Positions 6,001 to 63,755 of a DNA stretch of 64,000 bases are shown piece after piece (positions within the stretch are counted from its first letter, which is position 1; every line of letters starts with the position of its first letter). The notes beneath the pieces are model-generated. The model was not told where the DNA came from, made no database searches, and worked only from the letters and a program-made list of their open reading frames with translations. The DNA is from Patescibacteria group bacterium (GTDB lineage Bacteria; Patescibacteriota; Patescibacteriia; UBA9570): contig JBAYIY010000004.1 of assembly GCA_041665365.1 (NCBI GenBank), forward strand, positions 8,610 through 72,609. Reading direction: 5' to 3'. A program made the position numbers and the translations under genes.

Positions 6001-6672
6001 GCCACGACTGATGTAGTCACGGCTATTTTAGATGGTTTCAAATTTAATCGTAATGAGACATTATCAACCGATTGTGCCTTAGAAAAAGCTAAATTAGTCA
6101 TCGATACCAACCGGGTGACCGACTTAGGTACGATCGCTTATTTATTAAGTAGTTATTATTATCATGATAGTGACGGTAATGGTGTAAATGATTTTCCAGA
6201 TTTAACCAGTGGTTCATATATTACCGGTTTAACCACGTCAGTTTGGCCATCTTGGGATGCAGTGTTAGGCGATGCGCTGGGGCAGACGTTGTTTACGGAT
6301 CCGGTTAATACTTTTGCCGATGCAACCACACAGTGCCCATACGCGCCGGACGATAATAAATACTATGATGCCTCTGGCTCATGTTGGGATCCGGTAAACA
6401 AAAAATTCTTCGGGCCAACTGATTCTCATGTTTATCTTTATGAATATCAATCGGCTGATCAATTTGCTTTATATTCCAAGCTAGATTATACCGGTTTAGG
6501 TAGTTGGGGACAGAGTTACTCGTATGATCCATGCACGACATATTCTGATGGTACCACAGCTGTGTCTACTAAAATCAGTGGTTTTTCCGGAGGGTGTTCG
6601 ACCTTTAACTACCTGGTCAATAATACATTGACGACAGATAATACCCTGTATGCCAAACTCTTTGCCGATTGA
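1..6672 (+). CDS. Giant secreted/cell-surface protein (over 2214 aa). The reading frame is open from base 1, so the gene is probably 5'-truncated by the window edge. It is Thr/Ser/Asp/Gly/Cys-rich with repeated IPT/TIG-like modules and many CxxxC pairs.
   Basis: The track ORF 28..6672 is in frame with bases 1-27 with no stop. Repeated '...GQ(Y/P)(I/V)TI(R/Q)G.HFG...' segments resemble IPT/TIG domains. The composition is extreme in Cys and Thr. No TM segment is seen in the part covered. Confidence 0.6.
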   Translation, partial: KVTVPSDGSVVDGSYAFSEDKTAAVFYPASDYQADTTYKVELTSAIEGINPDTGAVYNLSSSDSKRIFTFSTGTTTDDIPPTVNVAELAPFPADGDVDICLNPTLQVSFSESLDPASPSDNNFWLFKAADVVADTLDIGNIRLTSIGGESDDTIVTSPQDQLDSNTEYGISLYSGDPATDQFTGAIYDTCGNPLSGNFDVLMTGSPTDDYIDSAATTYPWTFTTGDQPYCVPNIDSVSQEDSYYSEDQAPIGTSGDEDTGVTTLTGDYLYPFYDVNFNDNISAAGINCFDTGHDTTLGCFVSHTGSSSISLRLPVASQTGVVSVENNNGADDSPQVAVVASPYLRSTSPATGPVGQYITIRGKHFGDYDPAVSGSERGQVWFGDVAGEFVCADGWDDTSIIVRVPVGLNVDDTPTIQVITAAGKYSNQLSFTVTDGTPGPGLCELVPKCSDTGADSVTALGENFGDDGAVYFQSSSGEVNIGTVTSWNVYNETYLSQTVVTDGTPVTALDTYSFSVGSTGISNSLDFKISCAEPPSLFESYSCDLSAGTYYLPNPTSSSDNACVNSVIDFAFTTTMDDTAVESGVAIYKCNNTEPFDDTTCTPITGEYISGFLDSAYGAGSTASEYSFTPSGGFSAGYYYKVTIPSSVTDSTGVGLDSDYAWNFKVRDDTSACKVDSLSVSPATERVTGYDAVDACLDNHNYKDTSYSLRARPATADCLMLDAVGDYTWDISEPAILTFGSNSTTGSDVVGSSLTHTTTNGYDTVCLQGAGETNDGLSTVSASIEGVSDSADIEVDFGYCTQDSDCYTADCRDTYCDATTSHCAPDVIGFTPATVGAGGCLTLNGCYFGSDQTQSGYCTCTSLKADGETCTIDEGDVACLLSGGISSCTLNEEYCELGSTCTTESAEANYDLGYFRGCDCIMTDGTSRTCRVEDGATQCVVAGSETCSATSSTFTAGGAGSISFGSTTASTPASTYCGDVWNTDQVVVQVPEDGSVTPGTYDVTLQSYYGLSDTIEGCAVGSDPTACLCRIEPARGQEGTIADLFGDHFDLFTTNRRVTFAGSISRVQTDGTETWTSANEINNSIVPEGAVSSSEGVQLEDDTSTSNALNFNVSCSSDFDCATGCCNAGQCAAAEQCNICTTDSDCSSSACTSTCVASTCAPVITKLSPDHGAVGQPVTIQGCHFGSYYDPASSTPGSTVTMDGIQAELACSETQEWSNRQIIVTAPDGIFTDATTDLASVQVQQVSTVNAELIAQTSNAVDFTMDNSCSEVDLPVLCNANPVYSPVANDVTLTGENFRAEADGYCACTTSLGDCKITAGDTSCTLTESNTYYVNPTDTSEVCANGSSGPATSNANTFYDATVGACVYTDTTDTTITCQITTGSASCVVTNSDTCYADRIDTSLKCSKDVTGFVSLDGSAQYYSDQAAIIDWTTYSSTKYDTTVPSDSETGDVNVISTTQNNTQCVSNGLEFPISCASCGECNSTADHALNCDLTYDAAFGSCTTSSTGFCRAQPDSCCNVSSCIYDDTATTAVDGGTCVGQPVVAFTDPVMAVQPGDTNICANVQLHVKFSEGMTTSAATDTSDNFDKYIFLRPSSADDTASDETVLSTITPTKTGSELTLDLTKLLDYDTDYELIIRSQDTIVSGTKHQSGVISATTGAAIGCDATMSALGVCHDGYIKYTFTTASAADYSTQCGPASVVLEADSSDFIDHDYTFNESGQTEDITATTYSGDSQAISRIDDGTEPGFSWSYDWTPTYTTLADLEADICPIAGIIGASTDVPNQTLTADTPDAEGEHTDTVKVSITGDGSVEQGWNNSFTDSLLYDFQYCDPDKLVTYSNSDYNLYWSYCQGDMAEFDEVFSRDSAKITEEYGHTEDFIYEIGFKDTAATTNDATTNNNLIVLRVYPNDIDGSPASPWDSINPDLWYMLNTNNPSATATPTTVNGYDAVTVGNTVYVAANNLDDHDDSIEVEGEEEEDLNYGTLSSYMFVVAYSADASSATTDVVTAILDGFKFNRNETLSTDCALEKAKLVIDTNRVTDLGTIAYLLSSYYYHDSDGNGVNDFPDLTSGSYITGLTTSVWPSWDAVLGDALGQTLFTDPVNTFADATTQCPYAPDDNKYYDASGSCWDPVNKKFFGPTDSHVYLYEYQSADQFALYSKLDYTGLGSWGQSYSYDPCTTYSDGTTAVSTKISGFSGGCSTFNYLVNNTLTTDNTLYAKLFAD

Positions 6673-7237
6673 CCCTAATGTTGAAGATATCTTCGCTGAA
6701 TCTGTTAATGCCGCAGCGGGAGCGGAACCAGAGCCAGTTGCGCAACCATATGAACCGGTAGTTTATCCCCGATCACATCGTAAGCTATGGATTATTGCCA
6801 TAGTGCTAGTAGGTTTGCTACTATTAGGTGGTCTAGTGGTTGGTGGTTATTTATATTGGCAGACATTGCCTAAACCACAATCACCCGTTCCTACCAATAT
6901 CAATACCAACACAAACATCAATACTAATATACCAGTCACGGTTCCTATCAATACCAACACAAACATCAATACTAATACCAATATTAATGTTACTAGTGTG
7001 GATACCGATCATGATGGATTATCAGATGAGGAAGAATTGGTGTTAAATACCAATCCAAAAAAGAAGGATACCGATGAAGATGGATTATCCGACCGTGAGG
7101 AAGTACGGGTTTATGATACTGACCCGCGTAATCCTGATACGGACGGTGATGGCTACACTGACGGTGATGAAGTAACCCACTTCTATGACCCTAATAATCC
7201 TGATTCAACTAAACGTTTGTTCGATTTACCAAAATAA
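6650..7237 (+). CDS. Membrane-anchored protein with Asn/Thr (NTNTNINTN) low-complexity repeats and three thrombospondin type 3-like Ca-binding repeats (DxDxDGxxDxxE).
   Basis: Single TM 'LWIIAIVLVGLLLLGGLVVGGYLYW'. Motifs 'DTDHDGLSDEEE', 'DTDEDGLSDREE', 'DTDGDGYTDGDE'. An exact 31-bp direct repeat lies at 6899-6929 and 6947-6977 inside the CDS. Confidence 0.55.
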   Translation: MPNSLPIDPNVEDIFAESVNAAAGAEPEPVAQPYEPVVYPRSHRKLWIIAIVLVGLLLLGGLVVGGYLYWQTLPKPQSPVPTNINTNTNINTNIPVTVPINTNTNINTNTNINVTSVDTDHDGLSDEEELVLNTNPKKKDTDEDGLSDREEVRVYDTDPRNPDTDGDGYTDGDEVTHFYDPNNPDSTKRLFDLPK

Positions 7238-11735: not shown

Positions 11736-11752
11736 GGAACAACAATTAACAT

Positions 11753-11794
11753 AAAACTGGTAGAGACATGCCATGGCATGTCTCTACCAGTTTT
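11753..11794 (+). terminator. 42-nt perfect palindrome (aaaactggtagagacatgcc|atgg|catgtctctaccagtttt) after ftsZ. It is flanked by an A-tract and a T-tract, so it can act as a bidirectional intrinsic terminator. It belongs to the GTAGAGAC palindrome family.
   Basis: Reverse-complement identity checked base by base. T4 follows on the + strand and A4 precedes. Confidence 0.7.
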
Positions 11795-11860
11795 ATGTGT
11801 GTCAATATGTTTTTTATTATGGTTTATTTATGGCAGATGATCTATACTAACTGACGAACT

Positions 11861-22232: not shown

Positions 22233-22380
22233 AAAATATGTTTATTAAAAATAAAATTCCCAATTTATAGGGAATACAGCCTGTATTCCCTACGCTGGCA
22301 TAACCCAGATCAGGTAATGTAAGGATACTTCTCAGTCCATAAGGACGCTCCTATACAGTGCTATCATATTACCAGTTGAG

Positions 22381-30839: not shown

Positions 30840-32520
30840 AAAAACTCAGGCTGTCGGCCATAGATTGTAAATCGGTTTTATCGGTTTCTTTCAAACCAGC
30901 ATCGCGTTGCACAGTAAATAAATAAACCGTGTTGTTATGTAAAAGAGCCGCTTCAGCGTTGATAGAATTAGTAATCATACCATCGGGGCGATTTACACTT
31001 AACCATTGGTTGAGTGTTATACCGGGTGCGCTGTACGGTTTAAGCGTGATACTGTAGCCAGTCCAGGCGGTACTGGAGAGAAAGGTAGTTTCGGTAGAAT
31101 AAAATACTATAGTGCCGTCCGGTAAAATTTTACCAGTGAGATTACTTGGGTGTAAAACCGTAAATAGATCGGTGCTAAAAAATTTCCGCGTGGGTTGAAT
31201 AGCACCCAGTTTGGCCAGTTGTATATAATTATTACCTTGATCGGTGAGATTAGTCTTAATGGCATTATCAACGCGCCAAATTACATTACCGGTATCATCT
31301 TTTATTACCAGTGTTACCGTTGGCACATCAGGAAATGTAGCAAAGATGGTTTTTAGGGTATCCAAGAATGTGGTTTCAACCGGTGGTTTATAAACGAATT
31401 CAACATACAAACCTTGATCAGTGGTCGTGAAACGATATGTCTTAAGATCGATCTTTAACTTAGCCACGATGTTTCTTATTGTATTATTGTAGTTATCCCA
31501 TTCATCAGCGGTGGTAGTAAATGTACCGGTTGTGGTTGGAGTGCTTGGAATATCTGGTTCAATTGTAACTGGTAGTGAGCTATAACTGGGTTGATAGGCA
31601 AAGGCCGTTAACTTACCAGCGGTTTTGGCTGGGACTTCCTGAGTAATTTGATTGAAGCGATTATAAGCTAACCAAGTATTGCGCCAGGGGTGAAAAAATA
31701 ACCATTGACTACCATCCGTTGACCAAACCACTACTGGTACACCAACCCGATCTAATATTTTATGTTCTTCGGCTTTTGTCCCATCGCGTTGTAACACCAA
31801 AACATAGGGTGAAAACGGTTCAGGATTTTGCGTTGCACTAGTTACTACTAATCCAAACTCATTAGCTGTAATCCAACTTAATGAATGAAACTCATAAAAC
31901 GGTAAACTAATCGAGTTATATAACTCCGCGCCAGCTAAATCAACCGAAATAATTTTTTGACTATTTTCCACAAAAGCCATTTCACTACCGTCAGGTGCAA
32001 ACACTAGTTGATCATACAGTGCTCCAGTTGTGCCGGTATAAATAATTTTATCTTCGGCTGTAGCAATAGTATATAAATGTAATTGTTCGTTACTAAACCA
32101 AGCTACATACAATTCTGCTGAATCAACCGCTATAGCTTGAGGTTGAATGGACAGTTGACCAATTGTTCTTGTACCGGATGATTCGTGTAGAGACATTACA
32201 CCATTGGTCACACCATACCAATGATTAGTCGCGAGCAGATAATTGCTCAGTAATTCTTGGCTTTGATCAGATAAAGCCAGACTGGCCGTACTGGCAGTAT
32301 CGGTCGCGTAAACCGTTTTACCGGTCTCACTGGTACTAAGAAAAACCACTAGGCCGGCACTAATATCCAAAAAAGTTTTTTGGTCGATCGGCTCTACTGC
32401 TGCGTTTACCGCGGGGGGTGGTGTGGTAGTGGAATGTGGCCATAACCACCAAATAATCCCGGCAATTACAAGCAAACCAGAGGCAAGCACGATAAATATT
32501 AACACCCGTTGGCGATCCAT
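30826..32520 (-). CDS. Membrane-anchored hypothetical protein (564 aa), with a probable extracytoplasmic beta-rich domain
   Basis: N-terminal TM 'VLIFIVLASGLLVIAGIIWWLW'. No family assigned. Confidence 0.4.
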   Translation of the reverse strand: MDRQRVLIFIVLASGLLVIAGIIWWLWPHSTTTPPPAVNAAVEPIDQKTFLDISAGLVVFLSTSETGKTVYATDTASTASLALSDQSQELLSNYLLATNHWYGVTNGVMSLHESSGTRTIGQLSIQPQAIAVDSAELYVAWFSNEQLHLYTIATAEDKIIYTGTTGALYDQLVFAPDGSEMAFVENSQKIISVDLAGAELYNSISLPFYEFHSLSWITANEFGLVVTSATQNPEPFSPYVLVLQRDGTKAEEHKILDRVGVPVVVWSTDGSQWLFFHPWRNTWLAYNRFNQITQEVPAKTAGKLTAFAYQPSYSSLPVTIEPDIPSTPTTTGTFTTTADEWDNYNNTIRNIVAKLKIDLKTYRFTTTDQGLYVEFVYKPPVETTFLDTLKTIFATFPDVPTVTLVIKDDTGNVIWRVDNAIKTNLTDQGNNYIQLAKLGAIQPTRKFFSTDLFTVLHPSNLTGKILPDGTIVFYSTETTFLSSTAWTGYSITLKPYSAPGITLNQWLSVNRPDGMITNSINAEAALLHNNTVYLFTVQRDAGLKETDKTDLQSMADSLSFYDNN

Positions 32521-33748: not shown

Positions 33749-33783
33749 ATCTAGAAGAGATGTGTCACCGGCACGTCTCTTCT
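33749..33783. repeat. Palindromic hairpin (ctagaagaga[t/c]gtg-tcaccgg-cacgtctcttctag). A variant of the GAGACGTG...CACGTCTC family.
   Basis: 14-bp arms with one mismatch. Shares AGAGACGTGCC/GGCACGTCTCT with the element at 41366. Confidence 0.55.
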
Positions 33784-33847
33784 AGGCTAAACCACACGTT
33801 TACTGACTATGATTACAAATGTAATTCTTGAAAATTAATTCCTTGTT

Positions 33848-36924: not shown

Positions 36925-38238
36925 GTGCATAGATCAACGCTTGTTTGGTTGTCATGGTTAATCTTTATGGCCGGGGTGTGGCATATACCCCAACTAATTA
37001 TCTTTTTAGTAGGTTGTGGTTTTGTCACCAGCTTAATTGGCTGGAAACGTTATGTGTTGTTGGGTTGGTTAATGGGATGTGCCGCCATCGGGGTGGCTTA
37101 TTATGATCAGTTTTTTGTTGACCCAATATATTTAGACGGAGCGAAATTTAATGACACAGTGTTAGTGGATCGTTTACCGGTTTTGCATGAAGGTAGTCAG
37201 CGTTTGGTAGTTGTTACCAAAGAACAACAACATCTGCAACTCGATGCTGACTTGTATCCGGAATATCGTTATGGTGATGTGATAAATCTTAGATGCACCA
37301 TTCGGTTACCTAAACAAATCGAGGGATTTGCTTATGATAAATATTTAGCTCGGTTTCATATTCAAGCTTTATGTGATTATCCAACCACCGCGTTCGTTGC
37401 TACCAACCAAGGTAACAAAATAATTACTAGCATTTATGAGTTTAGAAATAATTTAAGGAAACGGGTTGAGAGTTTATGGCACGAACCGGCCGCGTCATTA
37501 TTATTAGGTGTGTTGATTGGCGAACAAGATACGATTCCTATTTCTATTTATACTAGTTTTCAGCGGGCTGGGGTGGTGCACATTTTAGTTGTGTCCGGCA
37601 TGCACGTGTTGTTGTTGGTGCAATTATTAACCAGTTTTACTAAATGGTTGCCAAAATTTTATCAAACATTAGTGATAGTTTTAGCCTTAACGGCTTTTTG
37701 TGTGCTAACCGGTTTTTCCGCCACCGTCATTCGCGCCACGGTGATGGGATCAATTCCGTTATTAGGTAGATTTATTGGTCGACCACATCGCATTCATCTG
37801 ACGTTAACCTGGGCGGCTGGAGTAATTACTCTGGTGAATCCATATATCTTAGTACACGATGTTGGTTTTCAATTATCGTTTTTAGCCACTTTAGGTTTGG
37901 TGTATATGACGCCGTTTGTTAAACCATTTACCAAATGGTTACCGGAAAAATTTGAATTACGCGATACCGTCACCACTACCTTAGCCGCCACTACCACCAC
38001 AGCACCGTGGATTGGTTATACTTTTGGTACTTGGTCTAATGTGGCCATGCTATCAAACATCGTGGTGCTGCCAACGTCGAATCTCATGTTATTTGCCGGC
38101 GGTGTCATCACAGCCCTGTCTGTATTATTTCCAAATCTAGCGCAAATGTTAGCGACATTATTGGAAGTGATTATAAATTTACTTGTGCAATATGTTGATT
38201 GGTGTGCCGCATTGCCTTATGCCTATATTAAGTGGTAA
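36925..38238 (+). CDS. comEC: ComEC/Rec2 DNA-uptake channel, membrane part (DUF4131 plus competence domain)
   Basis: Polytopic membrane protein. 'GVVHILVVSGMHV' is the typical ComEC competence-domain motif. Confidence 0.75.
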   Translation: MHRSTLVWLSWLIFMAGVWHIPQLIIFLVGCGFVTSLIGWKRYVLLGWLMGCAAIGVAYYDQFFVDPIYLDGAKFNDTVLVDRLPVLHEGSQRLVVVTKEQQHLQLDADLYPEYRYGDVINLRCTIRLPKQIEGFAYDKYLARFHIQALCDYPTTAFVATNQGNKIITSIYEFRNNLRKRVESLWHEPAASLLLGVLIGEQDTIPISIYTSFQRAGVVHILVVSGMHVLLLVQLLTSFTKWLPKFYQTLVIVLALTAFCVLTGFSATVIRATVMGSIPLLGRFIGRPHRIHLTLTWAAGVITLVNPYILVHDVGFQLSFLATLGLVYMTPFVKPFTKWLPEKFELRDTVTTTLAATTTTAPWIGYTFGTWSNVAMLSNIVVLPTSNLMLFAGGVITALSVLFPNLAQMLATLLEVIINLLVQYVDWCAALPYAYIKW

Positions 38239-39080
38239 AAAATATGTTTACAAAAATAAATAAATTGGTCATTTTAATCTGTGTTGGAGTGGCGCTGTAT
38301 TATTTTTATCAGCAATCTTTACCGGGTAATCTGACTGGTTCGTTTGTAGCATTTTTAGATGTTGGACAAGGCGATGCCATTTATATTCGTACCAGTAATG
38401 GGAGCGATGTGTTGATTGACGGTGGACCGGATCGTAAAATTCTCGAGCAGTTACCCAAAGTGTTAGCGCCACAAGACAATACCATTGAACTGATGTTACT
38501 CACTCATCCGGATGCCGATCATATCGATGGTCTGATTGAAGTGGTGAAGCGGTATAGTGTGAAACAAATTATCACCACAGCCTTGCCAGCCGAAAAATCA
38601 GACTATAAAGAATTATTAAACTTAATCGAAACAAAAAATATTCAACACACCGTAGTACAACAGGGGAATAAAATTGTGTTGGGTGAGCAAGATGATATCG
38701 ATATTTTATACCCTGAAGCGGATACACCTTTGACCACTTTAAGTACCAATAATACTTCATTGGTCGCTGAATATCATTATAAAAATCAAACTACGGAAAA
38801 AACGATCTTATTGGTGGGTGATGCCGAAACTCCAGTGGAGGATGAATTACTCAAACAAAATTTATTGCATGACGTCGATATTTTAAAAGTTGGTCATCAT
38901 GGTAGCAAAACGTCATCCTCAGAAGCATTCTTACAAAAAATTACACCGGAGTTGTGTATCATCGAAGTGGGAAAAGATAATTCGTATGGTCATCCGCACG
39001 CTGAGGTGGTACATAGGTTACAACAGTATTGTGAGATTAAAAGAACTGATGACTGGGGGAATATCGTGATTAACAATTGA
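38232..39080 (+). CDS. comEC: ComEC C-terminal metallo-beta-lactamase domain, encoded as a separate ORF overlapping the previous one by 7 nt
   Basis: 'LLTHPDADHIDGL' (HxHxDH), 'LKVGHHGSKTSSS'. N-terminal TM anchor. Confidence 0.75.
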   Translation: MVKNMFTKINKLVILICVGVALYYFYQQSLPGNLTGSFVAFLDVGQGDAIYIRTSNGSDVLIDGGPDRKILEQLPKVLAPQDNTIELMLLTHPDADHIDGLIEVVKRYSVKQIITTALPAEKSDYKELLNLIETKNIQHTVVQQGNKIVLGEQDDIDILYPEADTPLTTLSTNNTSLVAEYHYKNQTTEKTILLVGDAETPVEDELLKQNLLHDVDILKVGHHGSKTSSSEAFLQKITPELCIIEVGKDNSYGHPHAEVVHRLQQYCEIKRTDDWGNIVINN

Positions 39081-40394: not shown

Positions 40395-41359
40395 TGTCGG
40401 TTATCGTGTCAGGCTCAATTGCGTTCGATCGCATCATGGATTTTCCTGGAAAATTTTCTGACCATATTCTGCCTAATAAAATTCATAATCTCAATGTCAG
40501 TTTTGGTCTAGATAAATTATCCATCGAGTTTGGTGGTACCGCCGGTAATATCGCTTATACACTATCATTATTTGGAGAAAAACCCAGTATTGTTGGTAGT
40601 GTCGGTCATGATTTTGCTCCCTACAAAAAGCATCTTATCAAACACCATATCAATCTTCGGGACATTCGTGTAATTCCAAAAGAAACCTGTGCCACCGCTC
40701 ACATTATTACCGACCAAGGTGATAATCAAATAGCTGGTTTTCATTTCGGTGCCATTAGTTATCCGGCCGTGTCAGCACAGATCGTAACAAAACAAACCAA
40801 ATTAGGTATTATAGCGGCTGGTAATCTTGCTGATATGATGAAACTATCCGAGCAATATCGCCATAATCATGTTCCGTTTATTGTCGATCCAGGACAACAA
40901 CTTACCTGGCTAACCGGAGCACAATTAACCTATTTATTAAATGGTGCTCACACCTTGGTGGTAAATGATTATGAACTGGCTGTGGTTCAAAAAAAATTAA
41001 TGTCTGTAGAGACACGCCATGGCGTGTCTCTACAGAATAAATCGTCTCTACAAAATTTGACCCAATTGGTTGTCACCAAAGGTGAAAAAGGCGCCGATTG
41101 GTTTGTGGGTGGAAAACGCTATGTTTTGCCGGTGGCTAAACCCACCCGGGTATTAGATCCAACCGGGGCAGGTGATGCCTACCGCAGTGGCATAATTCTT
41201 GGTATACTCCGCCAGTGGTCACCCGAGCAAGCTGGTCGTGTGGCCGCTTTATGTGCGACGTATGCCATCGAACAATACGGCACACAAAACCACACGTTTA
41301 CAAAAACACAATTTAAAAAACGCTATTATAAAAATTTTAAACATAATATAATTATTTAA
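40394..41359 (+). CDS. PfkB-family carbohydrate/nucleoside kinase, likely adenosine kinase given the metK/ahcY context
   Basis: 'NDYE' (NxxE motif). 'DPTGAGDAYRSG' anion-hole motif. Confidence 0.7.
   Translation: MSVIVSGSIAFDRIMDFPGKFSDHILPNKIHNLNVSFGLDKLSIEFGGTAGNIAYTLSLFGEKPSIVGSVGHDFAPYKKHLIKHHINLRDIRVIPKETCATAHIITDQGDNQIAGFHFGAISYPAVSAQIVTKQTKLGIIAAGNLADMMKLSEQYRHNHVPFIVDPGQQLTWLTGAQLTYLLNGAHTLVVNDYELAVVQKKLMSVETRHGVSLQNKSSLQNLTQLVVTKGEKGADWFVGGKRYVLPVAKPTRVLDPTGAGDAYRSGIILGILRQWSPEQAGRVAALCATYAIEQYGTQNHTFTKTQFKKRYYKNFKHNIII
41003..41036. repeat. 34-nt perfect palindrome (tctgtagagacacgcc|atgg|cgtgtctctacaga) inside the adoK coding sequence, in frame (encodes SVETRHGVSLQ). A duplicated half-arm 'cgtctctaca' follows at 41044-41053.
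   Basis: Exact reverse-complement symmetry verified. Same arm family as 11753-11794. Confidence 0.75.
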
Positions 41360-41365
41360 TCGATA

Positions 41366-41396
41366 GGTAGAGACGTGCCGCCGGCACGTTTCTACC
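41366..41396. repeat. Imperfect palindrome ggtagagacgtgcc-gccggc-ggcacgtttctacc between adoK and ahcY
   Basis: One mismatch in the 14-bp arms. Family core GTAGAGACG. Confidence 0.6.
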
Positions 41397-54764: not shown

Positions 54765-55714
54765 AAATATTTATCACCCGCCCGATTCCCGGTAGTGCTC
54801 TCAACATCATCAATACATTGGGGACAGTAAAATTAAGAAACAAAGATAGTGTGATTTCACGTCGTGAGCTTGAAGCCGGCGTGAAAGATTGTGATATTCT
54901 CGTACCTATCCTCACCGATAAAATTGATGATGCCTTATTATCTCAAGCACCCCGTTTAAAATTGATCGCCAATTATGGCGCTGGGTATAATAATATTGAT
55001 ATCGTGGCAGCTAAGAAACATGGTGTGGCTGTGACTAATACACCCGGTGTCCTCACAGAAACAACCGCCGAACTGACAGTGGCCTTAATGTTGGCAGTGT
55101 CTCGCCGCTTGGTAGAAACTGATGGCATTATGCGGGCAGGTAAGTATCCGGGTTGGGGACCAATGATGTATTTAGGACACGGCATTTCTGGTAAGACATT
55201 AGGTGTGATTGGCATGGGTCGAGTTGGTACCCGTGTGGCTGAAATTGCGCATCACGGTTTTGGTATGCATGTGTTGTATTACACCAAACGAAAAGAGCGG
55301 GAAGTAGAATTATCATTGGGGGCAAAAAAAGTTAGTTTAAATACACTCTTAAAAAAATCCGACGTGGTGTCTTTACATGTCCCGTTATTGCCCAATACGC
55401 AACATTTGATCGGTAAAAAACAGTTAGCCCTAATGAAATCATCAGCGTATTTAATAAACACGTCACGTGGTCCCGTAGTAGATGAAGTGGCTTTAGTACA
55501 AGCCTTAAAATCGAAACAGATCGCTGGTGCTGGTTTGGATGTTTATGAAAAAGAACCAGCTATGGTACCCGGTTTAGCCAAATTATCTAACGCTGTTTTA
55601 TTACCGCATATCGGTTCGGCCACCATTGATACCCGCACTGCTATGGCCATGGTAGTAGCAAAAAATATTAAGGCGTTTGTCCGTGGAAAAAAATTACCCA
55701 ATCAAGTTGCTTAA
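54761..55714 (+). CDS. D-isomer-specific 2-hydroxyacid dehydrogenase (hydroxypyruvate/glyoxylate reductase or PGDH-like)
   Basis: 'GVIGMGRVG' NAD Rossmann motif. Catalytic 'R...E...H' arrangement typical of 2-Hacid_dh. Confidence 0.8.
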   Translation: MKIFITRPIPGSALNIINTLGTVKLRNKDSVISRRELEAGVKDCDILVPILTDKIDDALLSQAPRLKLIANYGAGYNNIDIVAAKKHGVAVTNTPGVLTETTAELTVALMLAVSRRLVETDGIMRAGKYPGWGPMMYLGHGISGKTLGVIGMGRVGTRVAEIAHHGFGMHVLYYTKRKEREVELSLGAKKVSLNTLLKKSDVVSLHVPLLPNTQHLIGKKQLALMKSSAYLINTSRGPVVDEVALVQALKSKQIAGAGLDVYEKEPAMVPGLAKLSNAVLLPHIGSATIDTRTAMAMVVAKNIKAFVRGKKLPNQVA

Positions 55715-56939
55715 ACAGTTAGCTCAAGCAACTTTACGAGCTTTGCAGCCTGAGCAAATGGTTAAGGTTAATTTACCAAAATTAGGTGTTTATAAACATA
55801 TTTATGTCATTGGTGCCGGTAAGGCCACTTTTGGCATGGCGGTACAAATTAATAAAATGCTCGGCAAAAAGATTACCGCCGGTTATATAAATGTACCAGG
55901 CAATAGCCAACAGGCAATAGGGAAAATTATTGTACAGACGGGGTCACATCCGTTTCCAGATCAAAATACAGTACAAGCTAGTAACAATATATTGAAATTA
56001 GTACGATCTGCTGGAAAAAATGATTTAGTAATTGGCTTGTGGAGTGGGGGAGGGTCGAGTTTGTTTACTATTCCGCGGGCAGGTATCACTTTGCCACAAC
56101 AAGTTGAACTCACTAAAAAATTAATGAGAGCCGGGGCGGATATTATTGAGTTGAACACTGTGCGTAAACATATTTCACAGGTTAAAGGTGGGCAATTAGC
56201 CGCAGTGTGTTCTGCAGCGATGTTGAATTTGATTATTTCTGACGTGATTGGTGACCCGCTAGATGTTATCGCCTCAGGCCCTACCGTGGCGGATGCATCT
56301 ACCACTAAACAAGCCAGGCAAATTCTAAAAAAATATCATATCTATAATAAACCGTTAGAAAAAATTATCTTATTAGAAACTCCTAAAAAGATAAATTCAA
56401 AAAAAGTAAAGAATATCCTAATCGGTTCAAATAAAATTGCTTTAAATTATTTAGTTAAACTAGCCAAACAGAAACAGATCACACCGGTTATTATAACCGA
56501 TCGTTTATCTGGAGAAGCTAGAATTGTAGCTAAGAGATTGTGTCGTTATGCTAAAAAGATTCAAGCTATTAAACAGTTACCGGTTTTATTATTAGCCGGT
56601 GGTGAAACTACAGTGACGGTAAAAGGCAACGGTTATGGTGGGCGTAATCAAGAATTAGTATTGGCGGCTTTACCGCATTTGGCACCCGGTATCAGCCTAT
56701 TATCATTGGCCACCGACGGGGTTGATGGTTTTACACCTAAACCGGTCGCTGCCGCCTTTGGGACGTTTATTGGTGGTAAAGACGCGATTAATCGCGTCTT
56801 TACCACCAATAAATTTTTGGATAATCACGATTCCTATACAATCTTAAACAAATTGCACCAATTATTGTTTACCGGACCAACTGGTACCAATGTGGGGGAT
56901 ATCGTGCTGTTGTTGGTTGAAAAACCCCCAGTCCTGTGA
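55677..56939 (+). CDS. Glycerate 2-kinase (MOFRL family)
   Basis: 'LVIGLWSGGGSSLF' and 'LLAGGETTVTVKGNGYGGRNQE' are MOFRL/GckA hallmarks. Confidence 0.7.
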   Translation: MSVEKNYPIKLLKQLAQATLRALQPEQMVKVNLPKLGVYKHIYVIGAGKATFGMAVQINKMLGKKITAGYINVPGNSQQAIGKIIVQTGSHPFPDQNTVQASNNILKLVRSAGKNDLVIGLWSGGGSSLFTIPRAGITLPQQVELTKKLMRAGADIIELNTVRKHISQVKGGQLAAVCSAAMLNLIISDVIGDPLDVIASGPTVADASTTKQARQILKKYHIYNKPLEKIILLETPKKINSKKVKNILIGSNKIALNYLVKLAKQKQITPVIITDRLSGEARIVAKRLCRYAKKIQAIKQLPVLLLAGGETTVTVKGNGYGGRNQELVLAALPHLAPGISLLSLATDGVDGFTPKPVAAAFGTFIGGKDAINRVFTTNKFLDNHDSYTILNKLHQLLFTGPTGTNVGDIVLLLVEKPPVL

Positions 56940-58897: not shown

Positions 58898-59665
58898 ATG
58901 TTACCGAATTTACATTGGGCAACGATTACGCTTGGACCAATCGTGATTCAAGTGTGGGGTTTGTTTGTGGCACTTGGTATTATCGTAGCGGTATTGGTCG
59001 TTAAACAGTTTGCTAAACAGCGGCAATTAAATGACACCGCCGTAGTGGACGCCAGTTTTTGGATAATGGTGGCGGCCATGTTGATGGGTCGAGTGTGGTT
59101 TGTGTTTGATGAATGGTCTTTATTTAGCGGACATGTGTTAGATGCTTTAAAAATTTGGGAAGGAGGGATGTCAATCAGCGGTGGTTTCTTTGGGGCTTTA
59201 GTAGCCGGAGTGATTTATTTTAAATATAAAAAATTACCGTTTCTACCTTATGCGGAAGTAATGGTGTACGCTTTACCGTTAGGTATTGCCATCGGCCGGT
59301 TGGGTTGTTTCTTTATTTTTGACCATCCCGGAACGGTGACAAATTTCTTCTTAGGTGAGGTTTATTTTGTGGATGGCCTCGTGCGCCATAATCATGGGTT
59401 ATATCTAGTGATAGATGGAGCAGTGTTATTTAGTTTATTTACTTATCTACGGTACAAAACCAAAGCCTTACCACCATATTTTGTGACGATATTTTTACTG
59501 TGGGAAGGTTTGGTGCGAATTATTTTAGACAATTGGCGCATCGCCGATAACCACTGGTACGGCTTTACCGCCGCCCAATGGTGGGGAGTTGTGATGGTAT
59601 TAGGTGGTTTAACTGTGTTTGGCACGAGGCAGATTATAAGGAAGAAATACACACACGTCCTGTAG
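58898..59665 (+). CDS. lgt: Probable prolipoprotein diacylglyceryl transferase (Lgt-like polytopic membrane protein)
   Basis: Seven TM segments. 'GIAIGRLGCFFIFDHPG' resembles the Lgt GR.GNF region. The stop codon TAG lies inside the following palindrome. Confidence 0.45.
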   Translation: MLPNLHWATITLGPIVIQVWGLFVALGIIVAVLVVKQFAKQRQLNDTAVVDASFWIMVAAMLMGRVWFVFDEWSLFSGHVLDALKIWEGGMSISGGFFGALVAGVIYFKYKKLPFLPYAEVMVYALPLGIAIGRLGCFFIFDHPGTVTNFFLGEVYFVDGLVRHNHGLYLVIDGAVLFSLFTYLRYKTKALPPYFVTIFLLWEGLVRIILDNWRIADNHWYGFTAAQWWGVVMVLGGLTVFGTRQIIRKKYTHVL

Positions 59666-59694
59666 AGACGCGATTAATCGCGTCTCTACAGGAC
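59657..59694. repeat. 38-nt perfect palindrome gtcctgtagagacgcgattaatcgcgtctctacaggac
   Basis: Verified self-complementary. Overlaps the lgt stop codon. Confidence 0.8.
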
Positions 59695-59756: not shown

Positions 59757-59922
59757 GTTCTGTTTTTGAGGCGCTTTTTTGTGCCTTAAAAACAAGCTAT
59801 TTGTCACGGTTTTTCGAGTCCTTTGACAATTTATCAATGTAAAGAATTAAAAAAACCATATATTTCTGTTTGGTTTGAAATATACGGTGCAGGTAGATCG
59901 AAATGAATAACCGAACCATCCC

Positions 59923-59976
59923 ACCCCCTGTCCTGGTAGAGACGCGATTAATCGCGTCTCTACCAGGACAGGGGGT
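59923..59976. repeat. 54-nt perfect palindrome (acccccctgtcctggtagagacgcgattaatcgcgtctctaccaggacagggggt), a longer copy of the 59657 element
   Basis: Verified base by base. Confidence 0.8.
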
Positions 59977-60095
59977 ACCGGGACGTCGGTTATTAATCTC
60001 GGTCTATCTGTGAGCCTTATCCAGGGGACGGTTGGGGCAATGATGCTCTGATCACACTGGGTGGGGTTTGGTCACAAAAACCGAAAGGAGAGGCC

Positions 60096-61835
60096 ATGAC
60101 CGGCTTCTTTTCTGATCTGAATGACGTCATGGAAAACCTCCTGTCCGGGCTGTCGGCCCGGCTGGTGGCTATCCTCGGGTTTTTGCTCGCCGTGCTCGGG
60201 GGTGGGGGCGCGTTCGCGTTCCTCGGTCCCGAAAACGAGTGGGTGACCCCCCTGTTCGGGGCGGGGGCGACGTTGGTCGTCCTCTCCCTGTTTGTGCGGG
60301 GGAGGCACGGGAATATCGGGGTGGAAGCCCCGGTTCCTGTGCAGGTTGTTCTCTGGGGACTGGCGATGTTTTTGTTGTGCCACGTCCCTATTGATAGGTC
60401 GGTCTGGATCTACCCCTGGATGCAGGGGGCGACCGTCCTGATCGTGGCACTCGGACTCGCCACGATCTTCATCCTCTCACCCGGGAGGGCGTTCCCGTCA
60501 GGGTCGTTCTTCTGGGGAGTGCTCTGTGCCTGGGGCGCAAGCCTCTTGCACTGGGGGCTCGTGGGGATGAAATGGGCGGCGACCGAGATCGCCCCGCAGG
60601 GTCCCATCGCCCAGGCCTCAGTGGCCGTGGCGTGGGTACTCGGCACCGTCTGCCTGATTGTGGCAACGGTGGCGTGGGCGATCATCCAGACCCACCGGTG
60701 GTCCAAGCGGGACCAGGTGTTCTTCCGCTTGGACAGGCCGGGAAAGTTCAAGGCCGTGCGCACGGGGCCCACGGTCTACACCTTCGTCGGGGATCTCACG
60801 GGTGTCCCCCCGGCGAAGGAGTCGGTACCAAGCGACGTTCTCTCCCAAGGGCCACAGGCGGTCTGGGAGTGGATGTGTGCGTGGCGGCCGACCCCCGCAT
60901 TGGTGGCACACGGAGCCCACCATGCGGATCCAACCATCCTGGACAATCCCAGGATGGATCCACGCCCGTTCCTCAACGACGCCCAGTGGATTCTCCCTGG
61001 TGCGTTCTTTGGGGGAGTTCCGGGGTTCGCCATCCCGGAACTGATGGTGGCAGAGATCTTCAATCGGAACCATGGCAACGGCGGCAACGGACACGCTGCC
61101 GGCGGTCATGGTGATCACAAGCAGCCCGACGCCCCGCGCCCCGGGGAGTACGGGACCTTGCAGGTCATTCCGGATGTGGACATGATCGTTGGGTTCGTGC
61201 CCACGAGCATGGCCGGTCCGGAAATCCGGCTGAAGATCGGCGTGTCCCTGCGGGCCGTCGGTCTGCCTTATCTTTTCCACGTGGACTCGCTGGATCACCA
61301 GCTTGAACACGCGGCGGAGATTCTCGGGCAGGCCCTCGCCGGTTCGGTGGGGACGTGGCTGTATGGCTTGACGGGGCACCTCTACGAGTTCGCTCGTCGT
61401 GGTGCTCCGCGTCGTCCTCGTACCCCGCTCGCCCCGGGGGATGAGCCCATCTCGGACATCCCGGCCGAGGTGGGGAATCACTTGGACCACTTCGTGCACC
61501 ACATGCACGAAGTTGGTATCCACGTTATTGAGTTGCGGCTCAAGGACGTGGATCTGCCGGACAACATCCGGCAGGTGAGTGATGAGAGGCTCACGGTCTT
61601 CATCCAGCAGACCGTGGCCAAGGCTAAGGCCGACATTCTCCGCCAGACTCGAATGGCGGAAATGGAAGCCTTCCTTGACACCGCCAAACTCTCTGACGAA
61701 AAGGTCAGAGGTGACGTGGTCAAGGAGCTGGCGAAGTTTTACTTCATTCAGGGGACGGATATGGCCGCCCTGCTTGGAGTAGCTTCCGCTGTCGGGTTCG
61801 CGCCCGGTATCGGTGGTGGCAAGAAGTCCACCTAG
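60096..61835 (+). CDS. High-GC (about 65%) foreign gene: polytopic N-terminal membrane domain, a His/Gly-rich linker, and a C-terminal SPFH/band-7 (flotillin/stomatin-like) domain
   Basis: GC3-rich codons throughout. SD 'aaaggagagg' upstream. 'IHVIELRLKDVDLPDNIRQV...AKAKADILRQTRMAEMEAFLDTAK' resembles the SPFH core. Linker 'NRNHGNGGNGHAAGGHGDH'. Confidence 0.6.
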   Translation: MTGFFSDLNDVMENLLSGLSARLVAILGFLLAVLGGGGAFAFLGPENEWVTPLFGAGATLVVLSLFVRGRHGNIGVEAPVPVQVVLWGLAMFLLCHVPIDRSVWIYPWMQGATVLIVALGLATIFILSPGRAFPSGSFFWGVLCAWGASLLHWGLVGMKWAATEIAPQGPIAQASVAVAWVLGTVCLIVATVAWAIIQTHRWSKRDQVFFRLDRPGKFKAVRTGPTVYTFVGDLTGVPPAKESVPSDVLSQGPQAVWEWMCAWRPTPALVAHGAHHADPTILDNPRMDPRPFLNDAQWILPGAFFGGVPGFAIPELMVAEIFNRNHGNGGNGHAAGGHGDHKQPDAPRPGEYGTLQVIPDVDMIVGFVPTSMAGPEIRLKIGVSLRAVGLPYLFHVDSLDHQLEHAAEILGQALAGSVGTWLYGLTGHLYEFARRGAPRRPRTPLAPGDEPISDIPAEVGNHLDHFVHHMHEVGIHVIELRLKDVDLPDNIRQVSDERLTVFIQQTVAKAKADILRQTRMAEMEAFLDTAKLSDEKVRGDVVKELAKFYFIQGTDMAALLGVASAVGFAPGIGGGKKST

Positions 61836-61962
61836 CCAGCCCGAGCCATTAGCGTGTGGCTCGTAAAAGATATCACGCCAGTTTCTCGTCGGTTTGAGCC
61901 ATAGTCATTACTGTGGTTCGCCGACATTCGTGTTTCAACAAACAACAATTCAAACAACAAAT

Positions 61963-61993
61963 TGTAGAGACGTCCCGCCGGGACGTCTCTACA
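61963..61993. repeat. Palindrome tgtagagacgtcccg-c-cgggacgtctctaca between the two high-GC genes
   Basis: 15-bp arms, verified. Confidence 0.75.
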
Positions 61994-62003
61994 GGGAGAT
62001 TTC

Positions 62004-62792
62004 ATGAGTCTCACTACGGCTCTTGCGATTCTGGTTCCGTTCTTGATGACTATTATCGGGGTCGCGATCGTGCGCTCAATTATGTACAGTGGAACTGACG
62101 ACCCCGCCGCCCACGCCGGTGGGAAGGAGGAGGCTCATCACGAGCCCTTCCTCCCCAACTGGCTCACCCTGGGGTACCACCCCAAGGTGTGGGTCGCGGC
62201 CGCCGCGCTCGTGGCGGTCGTCTGGCTCGGGCCGTGGGTGTGGGAGTGGGGATACGGGACCCCACTCGCCGACCCAGAGGTGGTCGAGCGACTCCAGTGG
62301 CCAGGCACCGTCCTGGCAATCCTGGTGGTGTTGATCATCAACGCCGCCAGGAAAAAGTACCCGGATGCCCACTCCCACGGGCCGGAGGACGCGGATGTCC
62401 TCTTCATGCTCGTGGTCACCGCCGTCATGGTGCTGATGGCGACCGGGGGCATCGGGTTCCTCCACCTGTTGGGGAACAACTGGGTGAAGGTCGGGGATAC
62501 CTGTTGGCGGCTGTATCACTGCCCCGCCAGCTGGATCCTGATCTTCCTCTTTCCCCACATGGGTGAGAGGTCGTTTGGGAAGGGAACCGGGCCGGCCACC
62601 GTGTCGACGGTGATCGTGGTCGGCCTGTGGGCGTTCTTCGTCGGACCGTACGTGTCCGACGGATGGAACGCAGTGTGGTTCGACCACATGGTGCTGCACG
62701 CCATGGGGTTGAATCACGCGTGGGAAATGCCAGACTGGTTCCTCTGGCTTTTCCCGGTTGACGATCACCTGCCACCGGAGTGGCGCTGGTGA
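62004..62792 (+). CDS. High-GC foreign gene: hypothetical polytopic membrane protein (262 aa), Trp/His-rich
   Basis: Six or more hydrophobic helices. GC3-rich. SD 'agggag'. The alternative-frame ORFs in this stretch are treated as GC artefacts. Confidence 0.55.
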   Translation: MSLTTALAILVPFLMTIIGVAIVRSIMYSGTDDPAAHAGGKEEAHHEPFLPNWLTLGYHPKVWVAAAALVAVVWLGPWVWEWGYGTPLADPEVVERLQWPGTVLAILVVLIINAARKKYPDAHSHGPEDADVLFMLVVTAVMVLMATGGIGFLHLLGNNWVKVGDTCWRLYHCPASWILIFLFPHMGERSFGKGTGPATVSTVIVVGLWAFFVGPYVSDGWNAVWFDHMVLHAMGLNHAWEMPDWFLWLFPVDDHLPPEWRW

Positions 62793-62895
62793 TCAAAGAG
62801 TAGTAAGGCTCGATTTGGATAGGTGTGGTAGGCTTGACGCGTTGTCGTCGCCGCCACCCATACATCCATCTCGAGCCTTTTTTCGTATACAAAAT

Positions 62896-62955
62896 AACTG
62901 TACCAACACAGGTAGAGACGCGATTAATCGCGTCTCTACCTGTGTTGGTACAGTT
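62896..62955. repeat. 60-nt perfect palindrome aactgtaccaacacaggtagagacgcgattaatcgcgtctctacctgtgttggtacagtt
   Basis: 27-bp arms, verified. Core identical to 59923-59976. Confidence 0.8.
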
Positions 62956-63727: not shown

Positions 63728-63755
63728 GTAGAGACGTTGTATGCAACGTCTCTAC
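63728..63755. repeat. Palindrome gtagagacgttg-tatg-caacgtctctac after rhuM
   Basis: 12-bp arms, verified. Confidence 0.7.

Follow-up and report, generated by a model that had tools for sequence, protein, structure and literature searches.

A perfect 34-nt palindrome in frame in a PfkB-family kinase gene of a Patescibacteria genome: a probable double-foot REP

The palindrome and the gene that carries it

We analysed a 64-kb window from the genome of a member of the Patescibacteria (candidate phyla radiation, CPR), and all positions given here are coordinates of this window unless a locus number is attached to them. The subject is a palindrome inside a gene for a kinase of the PfkB family. A first-pass annotation had reported a perfect 34-nt palindrome in this gene, read as SVETRHGVSLQ, and this was confirmed by reading the sequence directly. 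Positions 41003-41036 are TCTGTAGAGACACGCCA|TGGCGTGTCTCTACAGA, that is, two 17-nt arms that are 100% complementary with a spacer of 0, and the chance expectation of such palindromes in 64 kb is about 3.7e-6. The open reading frame (ORF) of the kinase is intact. It has no frameshift, the motifs GG.AGN, NDYE, and DPTGAGDA are kept, and the protein has nine extra residues. The gene lies between metK and ahcY, and in structure the kinase is most like a Burkholderia nucleoside kinase and the M. tuberculosis adenosine kinase, with template modelling (TM) scores around 0.9. The name adoK that had been given to this gene is reasonable because it fits the sequence, the fold comparisons, and the metK/ahcY context.

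Within the palindrome, positions 41006-41033 make up a 28-nt core of the double-foot repetitive extragenic palindromic (REP) type, GTAGAGAC-ACGCCATGGCGT-GTCTCTAC, and three more paired bases on each side bring the length to 34 nt. The core starts with GTAG at 41006-41009 and ends with CTAC at 41030-41033, and the same GTAG/CTAC ends are present in all nine copies of the family that were found in the window. Folding prediction for the RNA of the PfkB copy gives a stem of 15 bp that is closed by a loop of 4 nt (-28.2 kcal/mol, z = -7.7). The first-pass annotation had also claimed that a second copy of the 3' arm follows the palindrome. The foot GTCTCTACA does recur at 41044-41052, 18 nt past the start of its first copy and 7 nt past the end of the palindrome, and the claim needs only a slight correction: the base before the solitary copy is C, whereas the palindrome arm has T there. 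The sequence of the PfkB palindrome is also found in a 365-kb ENA contig (ERZ27249449 k141_1447249), which is an independent assembly, and a Logan contig from another run begins within the palindrome. Since independent assemblies carry the identical sequence, the palindrome is not an assembly artefact.

An insertion of nine residues in the kinase

It had been left undecided at first whether the palindrome was inserted into a loop of the kinase or had overwritten one. In an alignment of 41 sequences a 9-column gap lies opposite the insert in 40 of 40 homologs, and therefore the PfkB gene has a net insertion of 27 nt and not an overwrite. The loop of similar length that had been proposed from E. 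coli ribokinase was the wrong guide for the relevant relatives because the closest solved one, 3b1r, is nine residues shorter at the insert site. A location in a surface loop had also been suggested, and this is where the insert was placed in an AlphaFold model made from the 41-sequence alignment. In this model, which has a mean predicted local distance difference test (pLDDT) score of 90.7, the insert extends helix 192-208 and then passes into coil before helix 217-220 and strand 224-228, and it is only at residues 211-215 that the pLDDT is below 50. In the model the insert forms a peripheral surface loop, which fits an insertion that is tolerated. The next-best PfkB homolog is 61% identical and the nearest relatives are annotated as Kerfeldbacteria.

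Copies of the family in this genome

The palindrome in the PfkB gene is one of a family with the pattern GTAGAGAC-N12/13-GTCTCTAC, of which the window contains nine copies and the DNA just beyond it a tenth (Table 1). In the window GTAGAGAC occurs nine times and GTCTCTAC eight times, which makes 17 feet, whereas about 2 in total would be expected. Fifteen of them lie within family palindromes, and 14 of these form seven exact inverted pairs that are 12-13 nt apart. The palindrome beside ftsZ, which had been assigned to the same family in the first pass, is indeed among the seven pairs, and its 28-nt core is identical at 28 of 28 positions to that of the copy in the RarA gene. The two feet that lie outside any family palindrome are at 32187 and 41044. 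Two copies have imperfect feet, one because of a mismatch (41367-41395) and the other because of a compensated change in both feet (56776-56803). The ten copies are spread over about 77 kb, six of them being intergenic, one lying over a stop codon, and three being intragenic and in frame in the housekeeping genes for PfkB, glycerate kinase, and RarA. Two of the frames of the module are open and read VET....SL and (R/K)D....V(S/F)T, while the third frame starts with TAG. The open frames are those used by the three intragenic copies and the TAG frame is used as a stop by the lgt copy.

Table 1. Coordinates of the host gene, the palindrome, and the other copies of the family
Feature	Position	Strand	Remarks
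Host gene, PfkB-family nucleoside/adenosine kinase, 321 aa	40394..41359	+	Pfam PfkB E=1.5e-34
Perfect 34-nt palindrome	41003..41036	.	In frame in PfkB gene, S204-VETRHGVSL-Q214
Solitary extra 3' foot GTCTCTACA	41044..41052	+	Gives SLQN..SLQN peptide repeat
Family copy with one unpaired position, GTAGAGAC...GTTTCTAC	41362..41395	.	Between PfkB stop codon and ahcY start codon
Family copy after ftsZ, 25-nt arms	11749..11798	.	25 nt past ftsZ stop codon
48-nt perfect palindrome in glycerate kinase gene	56766..56813	.	In frame, ORF 55677..56939
Family copy at lgt end	59657..59694	.	GTAG supplies lgt TAG stop codon (59663-59665)
Family copy, 27-nt arms	59923..59976	.	Left edge of GC-rich island
Family copy, 13-nt core	61963..61993	.	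Between the two ORFs of the island
Family copy, 30-nt arms	62896..62955	.	Right edge of island, upstream of RhuM-like gene
Family copy	63728..63755	.	10 nt past stop codon of RhuM-like gene
Tenth copy, in frame in RarA/MgsA gene	L121 19612-19639		About 8.6 kb past window end

In five of the ten copies here at least five more bases, and up to 16, are paired beyond the feet, while elsewhere this is so in 4 of 129 (p = 7e-5). The folding energies of the hairpins across the copies range from -25 to -38 kcal/mol and the z-scores from -6 to -12. The copy beside ftsZ had been called a terminator, but this was an assumption because the family copies have no T-run downstream on the sense strand. At the PfkB copy the plus strand continues as ATAAATCG, in which there is no T-run as expected of an intrinsic terminator, and the sole terminator-like call in a terminator scan of this copy was on the antisense strand. 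A broader form of this idea is that the hairpin is a functional RNA or DNA signal under selection, which might terminate transcription, stabilise the mRNA or shield it from decay, or be bound by a protein, and that the intragenic copies are useful in the transcript, for example, by attenuation or by segmenting the metK-adoK-ahcY operon. We consider this unlikely. It would explain why six of the ten copies either follow a stop codon by no more than about 25 nt or stand between genes of the same direction, and it agrees with the very stable hairpins, with the extra paired flanks, and with palindromy being kept through compensated changes in coding sequence, as is seen below in the feet of the glycerate kinase copy and in the RarA cores of two species. 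However, besides the missing T-runs, selection on structure only does not explain why the 9-nt feet are identical over more than 10 phyla, the transposase genes found with the palindromes speak for mobility, and the RarA copy has decayed in a third species.

Several other observations were made on the surroundings of these copies. The lgt ORF (58898..59665) has a complete Pfam LGT match, and the REP, whose GTAG foot region is at 59662-59669, sets the C-terminus without truncating the domain. The GC-rich island (59977-62800, about 2.8 kb) is in the 60-64 kb block that is 54% GC as against about 41% elsewhere, and its ORFs, 60096..61835 and 62004..62792, are membrane-like without a Pfam match and are bracketed and separated by double-foot REPs. 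An imperfect palindrome of about 120 nt (59890-60010, 84% identity) is centred on the REP at the left of the island. Between convergent genes, at 33751-33785, there is a degenerate relative of the family, CTAGAAGAGATGTG...CACGTCTCTTCTAG, in which the AGAGA/TCTCT core is present but the GTAG foot is missing.

The copies in the glycerate kinase and RarA genes

Among the intragenic copies a clean insertion is found only in PfkB. In the glycerate kinase gene (DUF4147/MOFRL, GlxK) the palindrome makes up 16 codons that are read as FIGGKDAINRVFTTNK, and the length of the protein is unchanged compared to 19 homologs. In its feet there is a compensated change, G>A paired with C>T (GTAAAGAC/GTCTTTAC), by which the protein has Lys and Phe at positions where Lys and Leu are found both in the homologs and in the family consensus, and therefore this change suits the hairpin as well as the protein. 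In a second CPR species (P0245, L127) the REP segment of RarA is equal in length to the native loop of distant homologs, and in this genome it is two residues longer. The second species has a perfect GTAGAGACACGCCGCGGCGTGTCTCTAC at the same codons (L127 1071-1098) in a RarA protein that is 72% identical, and the cores in the two species differ by compensated changes, ATGCCATGGCAT versus ACGCCGCGGCGT. In a third species only a decayed relic, GTAGAAACCCGTGATAAGGTAGCATTAC, is found at this site (L128 10529-10556). Relatives with a short form of RarA read R(T/S/A)xV..(L/M)S, similar to a REP peptide that has been cut short.

That these two segments are unchanged or nearly unchanged in length would agree with an origin in place, either by drift or by template-switch 'quasipalindrome correction' of loop sequence that was already there, and template switching is a known route by which imperfect palindromes become perfect. 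We find this origin scarcely credible. It is excluded for PfkB by the clean gap of nine residues in all of the homologs together with the exact match to the family, and it also has to face feet that match the family in other phyla exactly, a RarA copy that is the same at every position of the core as the copy downstream of ftsZ, and the very low chance expectation given above. At the RarA site, either there was repeated re-targeting or an old copy was kept perfect via conversion or hairpin-templated correction. Conversion is favoured because the RarA copy is identical to the one beside ftsZ.

The three states of the RarA site, the relatives with a truncated peptide, the overwrites in GlxK and RarA, and the grown paired flanks lead us to a more general proposal, which we make tentatively and hold to be possible but doubtful. 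It is that in Kerfeldbacteria-like CPR, REPs are long-lived in coding sequence and are actively kept perfect, either by a rewriting process or as a selected mRNA signal. If this is the case, then conversion, homing, or hairpin-templated repair would rewrite protein loops, possibly without a resident REP-associated tyrosine transposase (RAYT), or else there would be selection for a structural signal within the mRNAs of minimal genomes.

The family in other phyla

One genome per prokaryotic species was scanned with GTAGAGACG-N10/11-CGTCTCTAC, and at least 120 loci were obtained compared to about 17 expected by chance. The hosts among the matches listed are mostly Cyanobacteria and Bacteroidota, but there are also Chloroflexota and more than 10 other phyla, and the CPR is represented among them by two genomes, one from Patescibacteria and one from Gracilibacteria. 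At these loci the core is variable and yet it is self-complementary in 91 of 129 copies and has one mismatch in another 29. Beyond the feet, the 129 copies showed a weak preference for T(-1)/A(+1) alone. An extra foot within 40 nt of the family palindrome, such as the one seen in the PfkB gene, was found in 8 of the 129 copies in other phyla as against 1.9% at control positions (p = 0.003). A literal search of the literature for GTAGAGACG and CGTCTCTAC returned primers and plasmid sequences alone.

Partial duplications of one arm, consisting of a foot and half of the core, stand beside complete palindromes at six of these loci (L023, L027, L029, L059, L083, and L105) as well as at 41044-41052 in the window, and at L059 there are half-units of 16 nt, three in tandem. 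Such partial duplications suggest that slippage took place at the hairpin or that copying was aborted there. Among the loci from cyanobacteria and Bacteroidota the module often has short tandem repeat arrays on either side or is embedded in a larger conserved repeat (...aaccctt|REP|aagggtt...), the loci being L041, L076, L099, and several in Nostocales (L010, L018, L024, L035, L083, L097, and L111). Repeats SDR4-6 of Nostoc, which Elhai and co-workers are said to have described in 2008 as small dispersed repeats (SDRs), are reportedly 21-27 nt long, apparently mobile, found in heterocystous cyanobacteria, and nested in other repeats or palindromes, and reportedly no link to a transposase was proposed for them. 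Our matches are reminiscent of these because many of the cyanobacterial ones lie inside larger repeats or between heptamer arrays. The pattern GTAGAGACG-N10/11-CGTCTCTAC was also present in IMG/VR viral contigs at no fewer than 120 loci (L129-L248), and several of these contigs have in common two copies that are exactly 1857 nt apart. These copies could be carried by phages or could be host DNA inside provirus calls.

The link to RAYT transposases

Six of the at least 120 prokaryotic loci listed, namely, L020, L021, L049, L076, L099, and L107, encode a Y1 transposase that the palindromes flank, overlap, or sit inside, and all six are from Bacteroidota or the related class Balneolia. The proteins are 175-260 aa long and have the motifs NH[LF]H, WQ, and YIxNNP. 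Their best NCBIfam match is 'REP-associated tyrosine transposase' (REP_Tyr_transpos) with E = 1e-15 to 1e-18, and their homologs carry the JGI name RayT. At L021 there are palindrome doublets on either side of the Y1 gene, and at L099 one side of it has seven copies in a tandem array and the other side a single copy. At L020, L076, and L107 a copy of the palindrome is in frame within the Y1 gene, between the HuH and Tyr motifs. When all ORFs of 120 loci were compared with each other, no gene family except the Y1 transposase recurred next to the palindromes.

This last result also bears on whether another mobile system could be responsible, that is, a tyrosine recombinase acting on a cassette site of the dif or attC kind, or paired restriction sites of the BsmBI type (CGTCTC). 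The 28-bp length and the symmetric arms do resemble Xer sites, the copies at 59.9-63.8 kb separate genes of very different GC in the manner of cassettes, and GAGACG/CGTCTC is a type IIS recognition sequence. We regard such a system as quite improbable because no integrase or recombinase was found next to the copies among the ORFs examined and the only gene family recurring beside the palindromes is that of the Y1 transposase. In addition, the central region is palindromic and not asymmetric, copies also follow or lie inside core genes (ftsZ, lgt, and PfkB), and GTAG...CTAC hairpins are tied to RAYTs in the literature (PMC6006769). Thus, an integron/attC-like or dif-like site was rejected on account of the ORFs examined, the palindromic centre, and the copies at core genes, and for paired type IIS restriction sites no supporting linkage was found.

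The PfkB palindrome as a probable double-foot REP

The first-pass annotation missed that the family is of a type already known, namely, double-foot REPs with GTAG/CTAC ends, which are linked to RAYT transposases. The TnpA-REP proteins of subclass 2.4 have double-foot REPs, 5' GT[AG]G ... C[TC]AC 3', and the motifs NH[IFV]H/WQ/YIxNNP, they are distributed in 'Cyanobacteria, Bacteroidetes and various phyla', and in-frame REPs within the tnpA-REP gene are unique to this subclass (Quentin et al. 2018, PMC6006769). The subclass is the counterpart of RAYT group 4 in Bertels et al. 2017 (PMC5581495). Our family is like these double-foot REPs in having a 5' GTAG and a complementary 3' CTAC, and a long, fully paired stem that is closed by a short loop, the fully paired basal stem of double-foot REPs being 7-20 nt and the stem of the PfkB copy 15 bp. 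It resembles them also in that the copies are multiple and dispersed, mostly extragenic and near gene ends, and in that its hosts are Cyanobacteria, Bacteroidetes, and scattered other phyla. In other genomes the family is physically tied to subclass 2.4 RAYTs, and the REPs flank the transposase gene or lie in frame inside it, as was re-observed in L020, L021, L076, L099, and L107. The HUH motif of these Y1 proteins, NHLH or NHFH, is near and not identical to the published NH[IFV]H. Unlike in the surveys of subclass 2.4, in which the CPR was outside the range covered, the host here belongs to the Patescibacteria. Further differences are that no RAYT was found in the window and about 13 kb more, that half of the copies have long extra paired flanks, and that three of the ten are inside housekeeping genes and not in the transposase gene.

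Because the palindrome is far beyond chance, the family has ten copies in this genome, the gap of nine residues is clean, and the loop is of low confidence in the model, and because the self-complementary family extends across phyla, Y1 genes beside it have RAYT motifs, and both agree with published work (PMC6006769 and PMC3733652), we conclude that the PfkB palindrome is very probably a copy of a double-foot REP of the type that partners RAYT / TnpA-REP subclass 2.4, group 4. The module is about 28 nt long with a 5' GTAG and a 3' CTAC, the stem bases next to the feet are conserved (GTAGAGAC[G]/[C]GTCTCTAC), and the core is free but self-complementary. By analogy with known systems, a RAYT, which is a HUH/Y1 tyrosine transposase, would bind the hairpin in single-stranded DNA and cut beside the GTAG guide. 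One copy would have landed in the PfkB gene in one of the two stop-free frames of the module and added 27 nt, or nine residues, to a surface loop, so that the enzyme would remain intact and the insertion would be tolerated. Most of the other copies lie just downstream of genes. The copies in this CPR genome were probably moved by a RAYT, either a present or a past one, and they may since have been kept perfect by conversion between copies or by correction templated on the hairpin.

There are findings that weigh against this explanation. The RAYT matches of the Y1 proteins, at 57-67 bits, are under the NCBIfam equivalog cut-off of 80. A profile search of the window and of about 13 kb of the contig next to it (L121/L122) found no RAYT-like ORF, and the link to a RAYT was seen only in Bacteroidota/Balneolia and at none of the listed cyanobacterial, CPR, or 120 viral-contig loci. 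The databases have no close relative with an empty PfkB site and thus there is no empty-site proof of recent transposition. Finally, the copies in GlxK and RarA roughly keep the length of the protein, which peel-and-paste transposition does not predict. REPs in genomes without a RAYT are on record in the literature. The best 120 matches in a search with the RAYT protein were Bacteroidales-like relatives only, which is uninformative on the CPR, and when MetK, AhcY, and the protein of ORF 6650..7237 were looked up for close relatives, only 100%-identical copies from the same strain were returned.

The parallel that had been drawn with the Rickettsia palindromic elements (RPEs; Ogata et al. 2000, cited in PMC3733652) is borne out in that a family palindrome is in frame in an intact kinase gene. 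REPs tagged with GTAG and CGTC have been catalogued inside coding genes, including repair genes, and RPE-4 and RPE-6 of Rickettsia have been equated with GTAG/CGTC REPs (Di Nocera et al. 2013, PMC3733652). Like those intragenic REPs and the RPEs, the copies described here are small palindromic repeats that are in frame in functional genes with a bias for loops, and replication or repair genes are among the hosts, in this case RarA. The resemblance to RPEs is functional only, that is, it lies in the in-frame insertion into a loop, because RPE-1 is 100-150 bp long and restricted to Rickettsia, whereas the repeats here are 28-34 nt long, unrelated in sequence, and in a CPR host. The families of Di Nocera et al. 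differ as well since they have an unpaired GTAG tag at one end only and are unrelated in sequence, and GTAGAGAC was not found in the supplements of PMC3733652. Thus, the double-foot REP class and in-frame REPs were already known, and what is new is the CPR as a host lineage.

These results extend RAYT-type REPs, and with them in-frame insertion into proteins, to the ultra-small genomes of the CPR. Non-coding DNA is scarce in CPR genomes, and a third of the copies here are inside conserved housekeeping genes. The peptides VETRHGVSL, RDAINRVST, and VETHGRASLQ in predicted proteins are marks of REP insertions, and assemblies are prone to break at REP sites. The near-invariant 9-nt feet in more than 10 phyla, together with the free cores, are a natural data set for recognition by subclass 2.4 RAYTs, and the same-site copies in RarA are a test case for the persistence of perfect palindromes in coding DNA.

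Other features of the window

Genes for ComEC-like Competence and Lactamase_B proteins lie directly upstream of metK at about 36925-39080 (L124 1752-3865). They are of relevance for DNA uptake in a CPR organism, but no link between them and the palindromes was found. With this ComEC-like gene nearby, pairs of DNA uptake sequences were considered for the feet and rejected because only 2 of the 17 feet are outside family palindromes. Rfam and tRNA scans of the window gave nothing beyond a thiamine pyrophosphate (TPP) riboswitch, and the GC-rich end of the window is not rRNA. The TPP riboswitch is at 22270-22362 on the minus strand and, with 62 bits, is over the Rfam gathering threshold.

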